Origin: a virus
IMG/VR virus record: IMGVR_UViG_3300010885_049703
Coordinates: 50,260 to 114,259 of that record
Length of the DNA: 64,000 bases
Strand: one strand, 5' to 3'
A program made the position numbers and the translations under genes. Below the pieces are notes generated by a model that was given only the letters and a program-made list of their open reading frames with translations, searched no databases and was not told the origin of the DNA. Below are positions 21,782 through 50,497 of the stretch, piece by piece; the first letter of the stretch is position 1, and each line of letters opens with the position of its first letter.

Positions 21782-21816
21782 TATTTAAGGTCATGTACAT
21801 TACAGATACGTTACAT
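21782..21816 (-). promoter_or_regulatory. Pho box plus TAAATA element upstream of plcP
   Basis: ATGTAAC-GTAT-CTGTAAT, then 11 nt, then TAAATA; same geometry as at pstS. Confidence 0.72.
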
Positions 21817-21820
21817 CATG

Positions 21821-21843
21821 AAAAAGCCCGCCGAAGCGGGCTT
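21821..21843 (-). terminator. Intrinsic terminator after tmRNA
   Basis: AAGCCCGC-TTCG-GCGGGCTTTTT. Confidence 0.9.
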
Positions 21844-21844
21844 A

Positions 21845-22140
21845 CTATTTTGGGTTACAAGGCATAGTTGCCCCGGGGATTACGCTGCGAGAGCGAAAAC
21901 CTCGTCGTTAGCTGCGTTTGCAGTTACTAGTTTGCTTGGATTACGTCCATCGCCTGGCGTGTTGCCTTCTTTGCTATCTCACCCTGTCGAAGCCAGGTCT
22001 GGCCCATCAGAAACATACTTCGTCCTGCAGTACGGTCCTTTTCACAAAGAGTCGCACGGTCTGCAAATATGTTTCTGGTGGACCAGGTGGGAGTCGAACC
22101 CACGTCCAGAATGCCTTTACTCCAAAGGAATTACAACAAT
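21845..22140 (-). ncRNA. ssrA: Circularly permuted two-piece tmRNA; tag ANAANDEVFALAA*
   Basis: Acceptor piece (T-arm GTGGG-TTCGACT-CCCAC, then CTGGTCC-ACCA ending at 22076) precedes the coding piece starting GGGCCAG at 22005 (G3-U70 Ala identity pair). Tag ORF 21921..21880. Outer ends approximate. Confidence 0.92.
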
Positions 22141-22153
22141 TCTTAATAGTCGC

Positions 22154-22576
22154 TTATTTATTTTGTGGTTGATAATCCACGTTGGGCATACTATACAATA
22201 GAAAATTGTGACTGACTGCATCAAATCTAATCTTGAACATGCAGACTCCCGGCTCGTCAAGGTAACCATAGCTGCGCTTTATGCCTCCACGTTTTAATCT
22301 ATAAACGCAAAAATGATCAAGGTCTATCAACGGTTCACCGCCTAACTCAATCAGTTCCACAATCACTGCGCTGTCTGTGTCTGTTCTTTCTATTACTTCT
22401 ACACCTACACTTGCAATAGTTGTGACATCATGAACAAAGTCAAATCGTACCAGGGCAGGCTCAACTTGTTGACTAGATACCGGGTCTCCCAATATCTGCC
22501 AACGTATGGCATTGCCTTTAGATCTGATGTATAACGAAAGATTTCTTTGATTTCTTGGCTTCAATGTATTGTTCAT
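22154..22576 (-). CDS. Hypothetical protein
   Basis: Protein-like ORF downstream of the radical SAM gene; start uncertain. Confidence 0.55.
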   Translation of the reverse strand: MNNTLKPRNQRNLSLYIRSKGNAIRWQILGDPVSSQQVEPALVRFDFVHDVTTIASVGVEVIERTDTDSAVIVELIELGGEPLIDLDHFCVYRLKRGGIKRSYGYLDEPGVCMFKIRFDAVSHNFLLYSMPNVDYQPQNK

Positions 22577-25336: not shown

Positions 25337-27214
25337 TTATTTGCTTTCTTTGAAGTCGGCATCAACTACTGTTTCATCTGCTGATTGTGCGGACTCAGAT
25401 GCTTTGGCTTTGGCCTCAAAGATTGGAGCAGCAGCCTTGAACAATTCATCCAGACCGGATTTAATTGCTTCCAGGTCATTGCCTTGAACAGCAGTTTCAA
25501 CCGCAGTGATTGCAGTGTTGACAGAAGTTTTTTGTTCCTCAGTTAACTGTGATTCAACTTCTTTCATTTCAGCGCGAATCATATGTAACTGTGATTCGGC
25601 CTGGTTGCGTGTTTCAATAGATTCACGTTGTTTCTTATCGGCCTCGGCATTGAGTTCAGCATCCTTGATCATCTGTTCAACTTCGGCATCACTGAGGCCA
25701 GAGTTGGATTTGATAGTGATTTTGTTTTCTTTGCCGGTATTTTTGTCTTTAGCTGATACATGCATGATACCATTGGCATCAATGTCCAATGTTACTTCAA
25801 TTTGTGGCTGACCACGACGTGCTGGTGCAATGCCTTCAAGGTTGAATTCGCCCAATGATTTGTTGTACTGAAACAGTTCACGCTCGCCCTGTGCAACTTT
25901 GATAGTCACGGCAGGTTGATTGTCGTCGGCAGTGGAGAACACTTGGCTATGCTTGGTGGGAATAGTGGTGTTCTTGTTGATCAACTTAGTGAACACTCCA
26001 CCTTGTGTTTCAATACCAAGGCTCAAGGGAGTTACGTCAAGCAACAATACGTCTTTGCGCTCGCCGCCCAACACAGCACCTTGCAAGGCAGCACCTGCAG
26101 CCACTGCTTCGTCAGGATTGACATCATGTCGTGGCGCTTTGCCAAACAGTTTCTCAACTGCTTCTTGTACCTTGGGCATACGTGTTTGACCGCCAACAAG
26201 TATAACTTCATCTATGTCTGCAGCAGTGACTTTGGCATCGGTCAGGGCCTGACGGCATGGCGCCAAACTGCGTTGAATCAATTCTTCCACAAGGCTTTCT
26301 AACTTGGCACGAGTCATCTTGACATTTAAATGCTTGGGACCTGTGGCATCAGCAGTGATATAAGGCAAGTTTACATCAGTTTGTGCGCTGTTTGACAATT
26401 CAATCTTTGTGCGTTCAGCAGCTTCTTTGAGACGCTGCAGGGCCATCACATCGGCCTTGAGATCAACCCCGGACTCTTTCTTGAACTCGTCAACAAGATG
26501 ATCCATGATACGTTGGTCAAAGTCCTCACCACCTAGGAATGTGTCACCATTGGTTGACAACACTTCAATTTGTTTGTCGCCGTCAACGTGGGCAATCTCA
26601 ATAATTGAGACGTCAAATGTACCACCACCTAGGTCATACACAGCAATCTTGCGATCGCGTTTGTCTTGTTTGTCCACGCCATATGCCAAGGCCGCAGCAG
26701 TTGGCTCGTTGATAATGCGCAACACTTCCAGGCCTGCAATCTTACCTGCATCCTTGGTGGCTTGACGTTGACTATCGTTGAAGTAAGCCGGCACAGTGAT
26801 AACTGCCTGTGTGACTTCATGGCCAAGATAATCTTCTGCAGTCTTTTTCATCTTACGCAATACTTCGGCTGAAATTTGCGGAGGTGCTAGTTCTCGATCG
26901 TTAGCGCGAACCCAAGCATCGCCATTGCTGGCTTCCATGATTTGATATGGCATGAGGTCAATGTCTTTTTGCACAGCTTGTTCTTTGAACTTACGTCCAA
27001 TCAAACGCTTGGCTGCATAGATTGTATTCTTGGGGTTTGTCACTGCCTGACGTTTTGCCGGTGCGCCAACTAACACTTCGGCGTCGGTGTAGGCAACAAT
27101 TGATGGCGTAGTACGTGCGCCTTCTGAATTTTCAATTACTTTTGGGGTTCCATTTTCTACAACAGCCACGCATGAGTTGGTGGTTCCGAGGTCAATACCT
27201 ATAATTGTGCTCAT
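25337..27214 (-). CDS. dnaK: Hsp70 chaperone DnaK
   Basis: [25 protein letters not shown]; start MSTIIG at 27214 behind SD AAAGGAG. Confidence 0.98.
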
Positions 27215-27219
27215 TGTTT

Positions 27220-27271
27220 TCTCCTTTGAAGTAAGCAAGATTTTGCAAATGCCCTGTCGGCACATTTACAA
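27220..27271 (-). promoter_or_regulatory. Candidate ROSE-like RNA thermometer in the dnaK 5' UTR
   Basis: 5' hairpin, then UCUUGCUU pairing with AAGGAGA (SD) with a bulged G. Confidence 0.55.
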
Positions 27272-27910: not shown

Positions 27911-27984
27911 TGGCTCCGATGGACAGAATCGAACTGCCACTCACGGTTTTGGAGACCGTTGCACTGCCATTATACTACACCGGA
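27911..27984 (-). tRNA. tRNA-Trp(CCA)
   Basis: ACGGT-CTCCAAA-ACCGT; CCA end. Confidence 0.95.
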
Positions 27985-28673
27985 ATTACTATAGTTCTTA
28001 CAACGTAATCAGCAAACTCTTGATGCGCGGACTCGTCAAAATGCATACGGCCGGTGGGAGTAAATTTTTGTTCAATGCACCAATCTAAAAATACCGGGGC
28101 AATCCAATCATACCTTTTTAAAACTGCTGCGTCATCAATGGGCCAGAAACTGTCTATGTTGATAACTTTGATGCCGGCATAAATTGCAAGTTGATTTAAT
28201 GTGACAATATTTTTTATTTTGTTTAATCTTCCCACTACAGGATCAGTGGCAAACACTATCCAGTGATTTAGATATTTCTGATATAACTTGCGTTGATCAA
28301 TCCATTGGTAGCGTTTTTTAACGACTTTCTTGCGTCCTTCTCTCACAACATCATCTGGTTCAGTGCGCAACCATCCTTCTAGTCCTGCTGCCAACGGCAA
28401 CCATTGTTGGTTTTCTTGCGAATAGATTTCTGAACGATCACATCCAGTCAAGCAGGCAATTACAATGTCATTGCTGGATAGGGATGACAGTTCTCTTTCA
28501 AAAATCCTAAACATAGCATCATTGCTACCTCCGGCAATGGCGTGATTTAGGGGCCGATATCCTAGACTCTGTGCAATTTTCACAGCATAGCTGTGAGAGT
28601 AGTTGTATTGATCGTCGCTGCTGATTTCCGAACCAGCAGCATGACTACAACCCAATATCAATGCCTGTTTCAT
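27975..28673 (-). CDS. SGNH-hydrolase-like phage protein
   Basis: GCSH..G, N.A..GGSN, C-terminal HF...H. Confidence 0.65.
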   Translation of the reverse strand: MKQALILGCSHAAGSEISSDDQYNYSHSYAVKIAQSLGYRPLNHAIAGGSNDAMFRIFERELSSLSSNDIVIACLTGCDRSEIYSQENQQWLPLAAGLEGWLRTEPDDVVREGRKKVVKKRYQWIDQRKLYQKYLNHWIVFATDPVVGRLNKIKNIVTLNQLAIYAGIKVINIDSFWPIDDAAVLKRYDWIAPVFLDWCIEQKFTPTGRMHFDESAHQEFADYVVRTIVIPV

Positions 28674-28699: not shown

Positions 28700-28867
28700 T
28701 TAATGCACTGCTTCTTTTGTATTCACTTCACACTCAACTACCCAATTATTGAATTGTGTGAATGTACTTACTTCTACCCCGAGTCCCACAGCTTCGTTGA
28801 CAAAATGTTGCAACAACGAATTATACAACTCATCGGGCATTGTATCTTTGGCAAATTTAATTTTCAT
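28700..28867 (-). CDS. Small hypothetical protein (55 aa)
   Basis: Not in track: MKIKFAKDTMPDELYNSLLQHFVNEAVGLGVEVSTFTQFNNWVVECEVNTKEAVH. Confidence 0.6.
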   Translation of the reverse strand: MKIKFAKDTMPDELYNSLLQHFVNEAVGLGVEVSTFTQFNNWVVECEVNTKEAVH

Positions 28868-28892
28868 TGTCAATCCCTAGATCTAAAGTAAA

Positions 28893-29097
28893 ATGCTCTG
28901 CGTCCCGCGGCGGTAATTATACTGTGTCAGTAAACATGTCCTCTTTCAAGGGGAATACCTCTACAGCCTCCACCCGCTCCACGACCGGGACCGTTCTCGC
29001 ATTGCCAGCGCCGTTTCGGTTGGAACGGTACCACCCGTGCTTGTCATAGCACTTCTCATCCTCCGGGTCAGAGTATCCAGTGACGCTGGAACGGCGC
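28893..29097 (-). ncRNA. Unassigned GC-rich structured RNA fused to the 3' end of tRNA-Ser
   Basis: High GC relative to flanks; many complementary segments; no credible ORF. Confidence 0.6.
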
Positions 29098-29185
29098 TGG
29101 CGGAGAGTATAGGATTCGAACCTATGCGCCACTTTCGCAACGACAGTTTAGCAAACTGCTGCCTTGACCACTCGGCCAACTCTCC
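29098..29185 (-). tRNA. tRNA-Ser(GCT)
   Basis: GCAGT-TTGCTAA-ACTGT; long variable arm; GCCA end. Confidence 0.95.
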
Positions 29186-29202
29186 ATAAATCTAGTTGCT
29201 CT

Positions 29203-29306
29203 ACCATATTGAAACACACTATACAACAGGTTTAGGTCTGCTTCTATATCCTGTCACGGCGTAGTATGAAGTTATCTCTAGACCTTGGCCGTAATGTGCT
29301 TTAATA
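29203..29306 (-). ncRNA. Fold-back trailer of tRNA-Glu with an internal pseudoknot-capable core
   Basis: 19-position imperfect closing stem (one mismatch) and four internal helices. Confidence 0.5.
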
Positions 29307-50183: not shown

Positions 50184-50497
50184 TGCCTCAGGCTTTCCAT
50201 TGTGATGATCTTGGCAAGTTCTACATTGAAATCTTGTTCAGATGTGATTATATAGGTCTTGTTTTCATTGCGATCTAATTTTCTATCATAGGTTCTAAAT
50301 GTCACAAGTGATCCACCAATGACTTTTTTTAGATTGATACGCAAGCCATCATTGAGCTCGTGTGGGTCTTCTTCTATGTCCCGTACCCGGTTGGATGATG
50401 CTAGTTCCTGTGGATAATCACCACCGGGGTCAATGAAATGCTTGTTTTGCCATGCCCATCTGCTTTTGCGTATGAACCACTGATCAAACCATTTCAT
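50180..50497 (-). CDS. Hypothetical protein
   Basis: Start MKWFDQW, ATGA-coupled. Confidence 0.65.
   Translation of the reverse strand: MKWFDQWFIRKSRWAWQNKHFIDPGGDYPQELASSNRVRDIEEDPHELNDGLRINLKKVIGGSLVTFRTYDRKLDRNENKTYIITSEQDFNVELAKIITMESLRQ

Follow-up and report, generated by a model that had tools for sequence, protein, structure and literature searches.

To our knowledge, the extra stable RNAs found in the transfer RNA (tRNA) clusters of phages, known since T4, have gone unexplained for about fifty years. In T4 itself, rnaC and rnaD are described as "RNAs of yet unknown functions" (PMC9697503); in its genome (NC_000866), rnaD (species 2, 119 nucleotides [nt]) starts 1 nt after tRNA-Arg, and rnaC (species 1, 139 nt) starts 6 nt after rnaD. 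Two other phage RNAs, GOLLD (RF02032) and ROOL (RF03087), are "often near tRNA islands" and form RNA-only assemblies, or cages (PMC12286853), and the csRNA catalogue that Fremin et al. (2023) derived from IMG/VR holds unnamed motifs of 29 to 151 nt, which sometimes overlap tRNA calls made by ARAGORN (e.g., DNAVirus_1423 with a tRNA-Tyr; PMC10690425). Here, we describe a structured RNA element encoded in a 64,000-nt stretch of viral DNA (positions 50,260 to 114,259 of IMG/VR record IMGVR_UViG_3300010885_049703; hereafter, the window). The element occupies 204 nt of the minus strand (29097 to 28894), directly 3′ of the CCA encoded by a tRNA-Ser(GCU) gene, and its G+C content of 57 to 62% stands against roughly 32 to 48% in the surroundings (background, ~42%), in agreement with an initial annotation of this DNA that had noticed a G+C-rich RNA of about 205 nt immediately behind this CCA. 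We find that the element belongs to a widespread RNA family that is confined to phages and absent from Rfam. Phage tRNA operons are already known to hold extra stable RNAs of this kind, whereas the fold is new.

Like T4 rnaC and rnaD, the element lies in a phage tRNA cluster, on the strand of the tRNAs and directly 3′ of one of them. However, it is larger, has predicted pseudoknots, and ends in a single-stranded tail (GCAGAGCA), whereas the T4 RNAs, as read from their sequences, end in a T-arm-like hairpin followed by (C)CA. No homology was recovered with nhmmer --max at E ≤ 100, nor with the covariance model of the family (R1, see below) at E ≤ 1 in a search of the whole T4 genome. A string in T4 rnaC (L247:1409-1547), GGAACGUUCGGAUA, resembles the 5′ part of the family (GAACGUUCCGG...GGAUA), but as neither nhmmer nor the covariance model sees homology, we regard this as a coincidence. 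With GOLLD and ROOL, the element shares an origin in phages or prophages, a genomic niche near tRNA genes, and an elaborate pseudoknotted fold and, with ROOL, a high abundance (PMC12286853); at ~204 nt, it is far shorter than ROOL (~580 nt) or GOLLD (>800 nt). Neither RF02032 nor RF03087 matched the element, and the two models recovered nothing from five carrier genomes, in which control searches likewise matched nowhere. Given that the motifs of the csRNA catalogue measure 29 to 151 nt, it holds at most a fragment of the family; compared by description only, it may contain such fragments, and the tRNA-Tyr that DNAVirus_1423 overlaps is also the commonest upstream neighbor of our RNA (24 of 58 cases).

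Family membership and tRNA-operon context

The family was assembled from IMG/VR by several routes. A syntenic locus on a 331-kb phage contig (L007) carries a copy that is 73% identical, lies behind tRNA-Tyr instead of tRNA-Ser, and displays obvious compensatory changes. A 32-nt pattern taken from the conserved core matched 93 stretches, and scans with a looser version of this pattern and with a 3′ motif each matched at least 120 stretches, both adding divergent members. The covariance model R1, built from 58 sequences and scanned against the retrieved loci, matched 100 distinct full-length members with scores of 107 to 255 bits; the window copy scored 193.8 bits (E = 2.7 × 10−60) over model positions 1 to 209, with every helix present. 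R1 also detected a divergent copy, missed by BLAST, in a complete 344-kb genome (G001). Altogether, the family comprises >150 loci and >120 distinct sequences on phage contigs, many of them 320 to 524 kb in size. No family member was recovered from 185,579 species genomes of bacteria and archaea in two motif scans, BLAST searches with three family variants found no match among 50,697 GenBank phages, and R1 found none in five partial relatives, which are fragments. More than half of the words sampled from the window were present in 14 DNA sequencing runs from 11 studies, all labeled lake-water or freshwater metagenomes except one labeled plainly "metagenome."

None of the 4,227 models of Rfam 15 matched the element in the window at the gathering score or at E ≤ 10. 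In searches of 400- to 600-nt stretches from the window and from two majority-type members (L183 and L155), there was no match at E ≤ 10 in the element region, and the only scores came from flanking tRNAs and from chance matches outside it. The initial annotation had recognized no signature of RNase P, 6S RNA, signal recognition particle (SRP) RNA, or a group I intron, which agrees with the absence of any such Rfam match at E ≤ 10. Of the checks that it had proposed, a comparison with Rfam matches the element to no known family at E ≤ 10, and a collection of homologs now stands at >150 loci with covariation between members and with RNA-library contigs on the element. Its description of the element as a candidate new large noncoding RNA is thereby borne out by a large, covarying, and expressed family with no Rfam match.

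The gene contexts of the 100 distinct members, with tRNAs recorded within 3 kb, link the family to tRNA operons. All 1,157 tRNAs so recorded lie on the strand of the RNA, and 96 of the members have one within 300 nt. In 58 members, the RNA starts 2 to 7 nt after the CCA of a tRNA, which may be any of ten identities (Tyr 24, Ser 10, Asp 5, Glu 4, Asn 4, and others); in 34, a tRNA of one of nine identities begins 2 to 10 nt 3′ of the tail; and 21 members are both abutted upstream and followed by a tRNA. The carrier phages bear up to 42 tRNAs in 15 kb. In the window, all seven tRNA and transfer-messenger RNA (tmRNA) genes lie on the minus strand, and the element is present in a single copy there and in the 114-kb record as a whole. 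With a same-strand tRNA close to nearly every member, the RNA thus takes one of the places in a phage tRNA operon. The tRNA end itself lies outside the conserved fold, given that the spacing from the CCA is variable and some members follow a hairpin or other sequence instead.

Covariation and predicted fold

When folded singly, the window copy is unremarkable: its minimum free energy has a z-score of −1.0, and 29 of 200 shuffled sequences fold equally well. Therefore, the stems visible in it are no evidence on their own, and it is the comparison of members that carries the case. RNAalifold applied to the 58 sequences proposed 43 pairs, 20 of them with compensatory changes. Pair counts were made on an alignment of 100 model-aligned sequences (A3) with 49 pairs, including two tertiary contacts that lie outside the model. 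In this alignment, standard pairs make up 99.4% of the cells, compared with 86.9% in shuffles (none of 500 reached the observed value), 27 of the 49 pairs have changed on both sides, and the cells with double changes number 553, as opposed to at most 74 when the partners are slid by one to three columns. The divergent members (alignment A4) conform to this pattern, and both tertiary contacts, namely, the kissing loop and the pseudoknot, covary although they were absent from the model used to fit the alignment. Thus, the covariation supports a fold in which five hairpins and one long-range helix are joined by a kissing loop and a pseudoknot as tertiary contacts. About 90 further nucleotides in junctions and loops are nearly invariant; this very high conservation of unpaired nucleotides, together with the two tertiary contacts, suggests a precise three-dimensional shape, for binding or for catalysis.

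The architecture supported by covariation shows a compact 5′ domain, in which hairpins H1, H2, and H3 are tied by contact of the H1 loop with the H3 loop and by a pseudoknot between the H2 loop and a GGGU motif and are followed by H4 and H5, and a 3′ domain in which the long-range helix closes a variable arm. The parts are listed here from 5′ to 3′, after the tRNA gene and the element as a whole.

29098 to 29185, minus strand: tRNA-Ser(GCU) with encoded CCA, upstream neighbor of the element (ARAGORN; Rfam tRNA model, 62.2 bits)
28894 to 29097, minus strand: the structured RNA in full, 204 nt, beginning with the base next to the CCA and ending with the tail GCAGAGCA (R1; family alignments A2, A3, and A4)
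29091 to 29093, minus strand: 5′ strand of P1, CGU, with its partner ACG at 28992 to 28994 (RNAalifold; 95 to 97% of cells paired, nearly invariant, weakly supported)
29076 to 29090, minus strand: hairpin H1, UCCAG-CGUCA-CUGGA, whose loop GUCA is predicted to kiss the H3 loop UGAC (five of five stem pairs compensatory)
29061 to 29073, minus strand: hairpin H2, CUCUG-ACC-CGGAG, whose loop ACC would form the pseudoknot with GGU of GGGUGGU (stem covaries: GC in 52, CG in 45, and others)
29052 to 29060, minus strand: junction J2/3, GAUGAGAAG, unpaired and highly conserved ([nearly] invariant in A2, shortened only in divergent copies)
29038 to 29051, minus strand: hairpin H3, UGCU-AUGACA-AGCA, partner of H1 in the kiss (three of four stem pairs compensatory)
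29030 to 29036, minus strand: first GGGUGGU motif, putative receptor for the H2 loop (loop/partner covariation)
29011 to 29028, minus strand: hairpin H4, CCGUU-CCAACCGA-AACGG, with a conserved AACC in the loop (four of five pairs compensatory)
28998 to 29010, minus strand: mini-hairpin H5, CGC-UGGCAAU-GCG (closing pair covaries: CG in 88, UA in 12)
28986 to 28997, minus strand: conserved core AGA-ACG-GUCCCG, made up of a junction, the 3′ strand of P1, and the 5′ strand of the long-range helix (used as search pattern)
28921 to 28967, minus strand: variable arm, with the base GCUGU/ACAGU and a strain-type insert bearing a GAAA-capped hairpin (five of six base pairs compensatory)
28902 to 28913, minus strand: 3′ strand CCGC-CG-CGGGAC, with the partners GCGG at 28974 to 28977, CG at 28982 to 28983, and GUCCCG at 28986 to 28991 (covariation)
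28894 to 28901, minus strand: 3′ tail GCAGAGCA, conserved and single stranded, with no partner in the model (end of family conservation)

The two tertiary contacts can be followed through the family. The H1/H3 loops alternate between UGUC/GACA, AUCA/UGAU, AACG/CGUU, GUUA/UGAC, and the GUCA/UGAC of the window, and the divergent copy in G001 has UGAUA/UAUCA. Four loci (L220, L231, L263, and L264) carry the same loop, GUAGCA, in both H1 and H3, in which only a 2-bp GC/GC contact is possible; they represent either an exception to the kissing loop or a contact of another kind. The H2 loop and its partner read ACC and GGGUGGU in 98 members (in the window, as ACC with GGU), change together to GUCC and GGGCGGU in 3, and become GUC and GAC in L256. 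In the long-range helix (GUCCCG at 28991 to 28986 with CGGGAC at 28907 to 28902), one pair occurs as UA in 20, AU in 7, and GC in 2 members, and another as UG in 74, UA in 18, and GC in 7.

A helix joining GGUGGUA of the first repeat to UACCGCC was considered but is not favored: it has a single compensatory case (G001), and it is contradicted by U·U in 14 members and by L272, in which ACCGCC has become ACCUCC together with the second motif. The second GGGUGG repeat is favored as the partner of ACCGCC since L272 keeps GCGG/CCGC as GAGG/CCUC; the first-repeat helix might possibly be an alternative conformer. The variable arm occurs in 21 different lengths across the family. At its base, most members, as read from their sequences, have a K-turn-like motif consisting of a stem, a 3-nt bulge, GA/AG, and U·U (majority reading, GGUACG-UGU-GAUGG/CUUGA-UGUACU); the window copy, GCUGU-A-GA-GG/CUGA-C-ACAGU, does not present a canonical K-turn. 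The tail is nearly invariant and reads GAAGAGCA in L251 and L257, the two most divergent copies.

Some pairings listed in the initial annotation recur as elements of this fold: GUGCU/AGCAC corresponds to hairpin H3, GCUGU/ACAGU forms the helix on which the variable arm stands, and GCGG/CCGC persists through the single compensatory change in L272. Others are not seen beyond the strain. An 11-bp stem that included the CCA (CCAGCGCCGUU/AACGGCGCUGG) and the pairing ACCGUUC/GAACGGU are both absent even from the closest subtype relatives, L091 and L144; their strands belong to H4 (CCGUU/AACGG), H5, and the core, and with the stem confined to one strain, a participation of the CCA in the fold is unsupported. 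The pairings proposed to close the ends also resolve differently. CUCUG covaries with CGGAG as H2 and does not pair with the 3′ CAGAG, the tail GCAGAGCA has no partner in the model, and CGGG(AC) pairs with GUCCCG in the long-range helix instead of with CCCG, taken here as that of ACCCGG in the H2 loop and 3′ strand. The suspicion of pseudoknots was correct in kind, but those supported by the family are different ones, namely, the H1-loop/H3-loop kiss and the H2-loop/GGGU pairing.

Expression and possible functions

Three lake-water metatranscriptome runs from three studies (X16, X17, and X18) contain contigs of 158, 174, and 184 nt that span positions 28924 to 29080, 28912 to 29085, and 28902 to 29085, respectively, with one or two differences from the window. 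They are confined to the element and extend neither into tRNA-Ser nor into the next open reading frame (ORF). Short contigs on the family-conserved core have word depths of ~140 to 740 each and summed bin depths of 300 to 830, compared with word depths of 0 to 13.5 on the tRNAs and the flanking gene in the same RNA libraries. The contig ends at 29080 to 29085, inside H1, probably reflect strain branching in the assembly rather than ends of the RNA. These contigs speak well, though not conclusively, for a discrete RNA of high abundance.

We consider it probable that the stretch is a gene for a stable, structured noncoding RNA of ~204 nt, belonging to an undescribed phage-only family within phage tRNA operons and acting in trans. 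As the anatomy of the operons suggests, the RNA would be cotranscribed with the tRNAs and cut free by their maturation enzymes: 3′-end processing of the upstream tRNA, in the window tRNA-Ser(GCU), would set its 5′ end, and where a tRNA follows, the RNase P cut at the 5′ end of that tRNA would set its 3′ end. It would then act in trans during infection, with tRNA or the translation machinery as the likeliest targets in view of its niche in tRNA operons, and its mode of action might be that of an RNA scaffold, possibly self-associating, or of a tRNA-like decoy. Of these, we rank highest an RNA that serves as a scaffold or binds a target and that may self-associate, above both decoy and ribozyme.

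Several observations weigh against this assignment. P1 and two C-G pairs never vary and so offer no covariation to judge them by, and the shuffle controls overstate significance because the members are related to each other. Among complete genomes, G001 and G006 to G008 carry the RNA and R1 at E ≤ 1 finds no copy in a 328-kb relative (G002), so the family is not universal, and the linkage to tRNAs is usual but not obligatory, since the divergent copy in G001 has no tRNA within 1.5 kb. The processing route is drawn from gene order; the contigs cannot give the ends, strand, or true level of the RNA, and the RNA libraries may contain DNA. No partner protein emerged, the downstream ORFs being heterogeneous and unrelated between members, and homologs of L7Ae and RnpA were absent from the five carrier genomes searched, although for RnpA a host protein could serve instead.

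A new functional class is an alternative that we entertain tentatively. It could be a self-assembling RNA, in which the H1/H3 contact and a palindromic 5′ AACGUU would join copies in trans in the manner of the GOLLD and ROOL cages, or a new ribozyme or tRNA-binding RNA acting on phage pre-tRNAs or on host tRNA-directed defenses. With regard to the former, the covarying H1 and H3 loops might just as well meet between molecules, as in the homo-oligomers of GOLLD and ROOL. That the RNA is specifically a ribozyme, cleaving itself from the tRNA at its own 5′ edge or processing long tRNA precursors in trans, seems unlikely to us, even though 58 of 100 members sit directly behind a CCA, the RNA combines very strongly conserved unpaired nucleotides with a pseudoknotted architecture as in catalytic RNAs, and the carrier phages are as rich in tRNAs as noted above. 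No ribozyme, RNase P, or group I model of Rfam matched any of three members at E ≤ 10; the spacing from CCA to core varies from 2 to 7 nt, and 42 of the 100 members have no abutting 5′ tRNA, both of which speak against a ribozyme bound to cut exactly at the CCA; and the copy in G001 is far from any tRNA. Its likeness to RNase P RNA consists of the long-range helix beside a conserved GAGAAC-type junction and of a tie to tRNA maturation by genomic context; models RF00010, RF00011, RF00373, and RF02357 failed to match the three members at E ≤ 10, and the ends of the element do not pair into a P1, unlike those of bacterial RNase P RNA. The order of conserved blocks also differs between the element and Escherichia coli RNase P RNA. 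Among self-cleaving ribozymes (hammerhead, hepatitis delta virus-like, twister, twister-sister, hatchet, and pistol), no Rfam model matched these members, and GAUGAGAAG lacks, on reading, the hammerhead arrangement CUGAUGA...GAAA. Resemblances to RNase P, SRP, sarcin-ricin, and twister motifs are supported by no model and were rejected, as was a group I intron, given that RF00028 does not match, the tRNA upstream is intact, and the element is intergenic.

A tRNA-like decoy or sponge, whose cloverleaf-like 5′ domain would mimic the tRNA elbow and titrate a host tRNA-directed defense nuclease or a tRNA-binding enzyme, is in our judgment also doubtful. The RNA does take a tRNA slot in the arrays, its H1 and H3 loops are predicted to be in contact on either side of a 5-bp "anticodon-like" arm, and it is abundant in RNA libraries; yet neither ARAGORN nor the Rfam tRNA model (RF00005) calls the element, its 3′ end has no acceptor end or CCA, unlike T4 RNAs C and D, and the loop of the arm has just 3 nt, buried in the pseudoknot. 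We regard as very unlikely a cis-regulatory element, i.e., a riboswitch or attenuator for a downstream gene or tRNAs, as might be imagined from the complex conserved fold and from the U-rich sequence that follows the tail in the window copy and in many others: what lies downstream is inconsistent (nine tRNA identities, unrelated small ORFs, or promoter-like sequence), no terminator hairpin adjoins the U run, and the RNA contigs end inside the element instead of in the next gene. Just as unlikely is a selfish or mobile DNA module, or the scar of one, moving from one tRNA 3′ end to another without serving the phage. The same RNA does occur behind ten different tRNAs, the module order is shuffled among close relatives, identity to a near-identical strain (L016) falls at the tRNA-Ser edge, and a gene for an HNH endonuclease lies 3′ of the copy in G001. 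Against it, G000 and G001 have a single copy each, the family alignments contain no conserved terminal repeat at the element ends, the heterogeneous downstream ORFs include no recombinase that we noted, and compensatory substitutions preserve the RNA pairs, which argues for selection on the transcript. A small protein-coding gene has a negligible chance of being correct. In the window, the element is overlapped by ORFs at 28917 to 29132 and 28961 to 29179 on the minus strand and 28867 to 29049 on the plus strand, and some frame is open over at least 90% of the element in 39 of the 100 members; the open frames differ in frame and are mostly on the strand opposite all tRNAs, the minus-strand ORFs of the window overlap tRNA-Ser, the insert lengths are not multiples of three, and the substitutions are pairwise compensatory. 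As the 21 lengths of the variable arm do not favor multiples of three (53, 26, and 21 members by remainder) and the open frames differ between members, the element is noncoding.

Neighboring genes and implications

The window is part of a 114-kb record estimated to be 33% complete, and the relatives of this record are phages of 328 to 345 kb. On the 3′ side of the element lie an ORF of 57 amino acids (aa) and a gene for a DUF6071-like protein (27975 to 28673, minus strand; 232 aa), whose match is weak and below the Pfam cutoff; related large phages (L002, L003, L007, and L008) also have such a gene in or beside their tRNA arrays. The window also encodes a full-length phage Hsp70/DnaK, located between tRNA genes (25337 to 27265, minus strand; 862 bits), and a permuted two-piece tmRNA of the betaproteobacterial type (21789 to 22238, minus strand; tag ANAANDEVFALAA), which is the sole hint of the host. 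A 121-nt spacer between tRNA-Glu and tRNA-Ser (29186 to 29306) is absent from L016, in which 6 nt separate the two tRNAs. Between 29189 and 28600, the window is 100% identical to L016, but across tRNA-Glu only 82%, from which we infer a recombination breakpoint at the 5′ edge of tRNA-Ser.

Other arrays differ in their arrangement. In the closest subtype relatives, the RNA copy (L091:5810-6023 and L144:5389-5602) abuts tRNA-Glu in L091 and lies 111 nt downstream of it in L144, with tRNA-Ser 263 nt downstream of the RNA in both; thus, the module order of the array is shuffled between close phages. In many members (e.g., L112, L023, L093, L076, L020, L050, and L074), a conserved block, GAAGCACAUUAAAGAUAGGGUCGUAGCGGUUCAUUGAACCUUAGUA, is found just 3′ of the RNA and may be another RNA module of the array. 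The HNH endonuclease ORF of the complete genome G001 (L251:1794-2252, plus strand) lies directly 3′ of the divergent copy.

GOLLD and ROOL set the precedent that phage RNAs next to tRNA islands can form unexpected RNA-only machines. The present family is a third such case, which is much smaller (~200 nt) and very well defined, with >100 distinct natural variants, compensatory changes behind nearly every helix, two tertiary contacts, and a strong presence in lake metatranscriptomes. Its small size makes it suitable for chemical probing, crystallography or cryo-electron microscopy, and in vitro processing assays. Its function, once found, could show what large phages gain from their tRNA operons besides codon supply, and the catalogue of RNAs could be enriched by a new fold and perhaps a new activity. 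If the RNA did represent a new functional class, phage tRNA arrays would gain a previously unknown RNA-based function.

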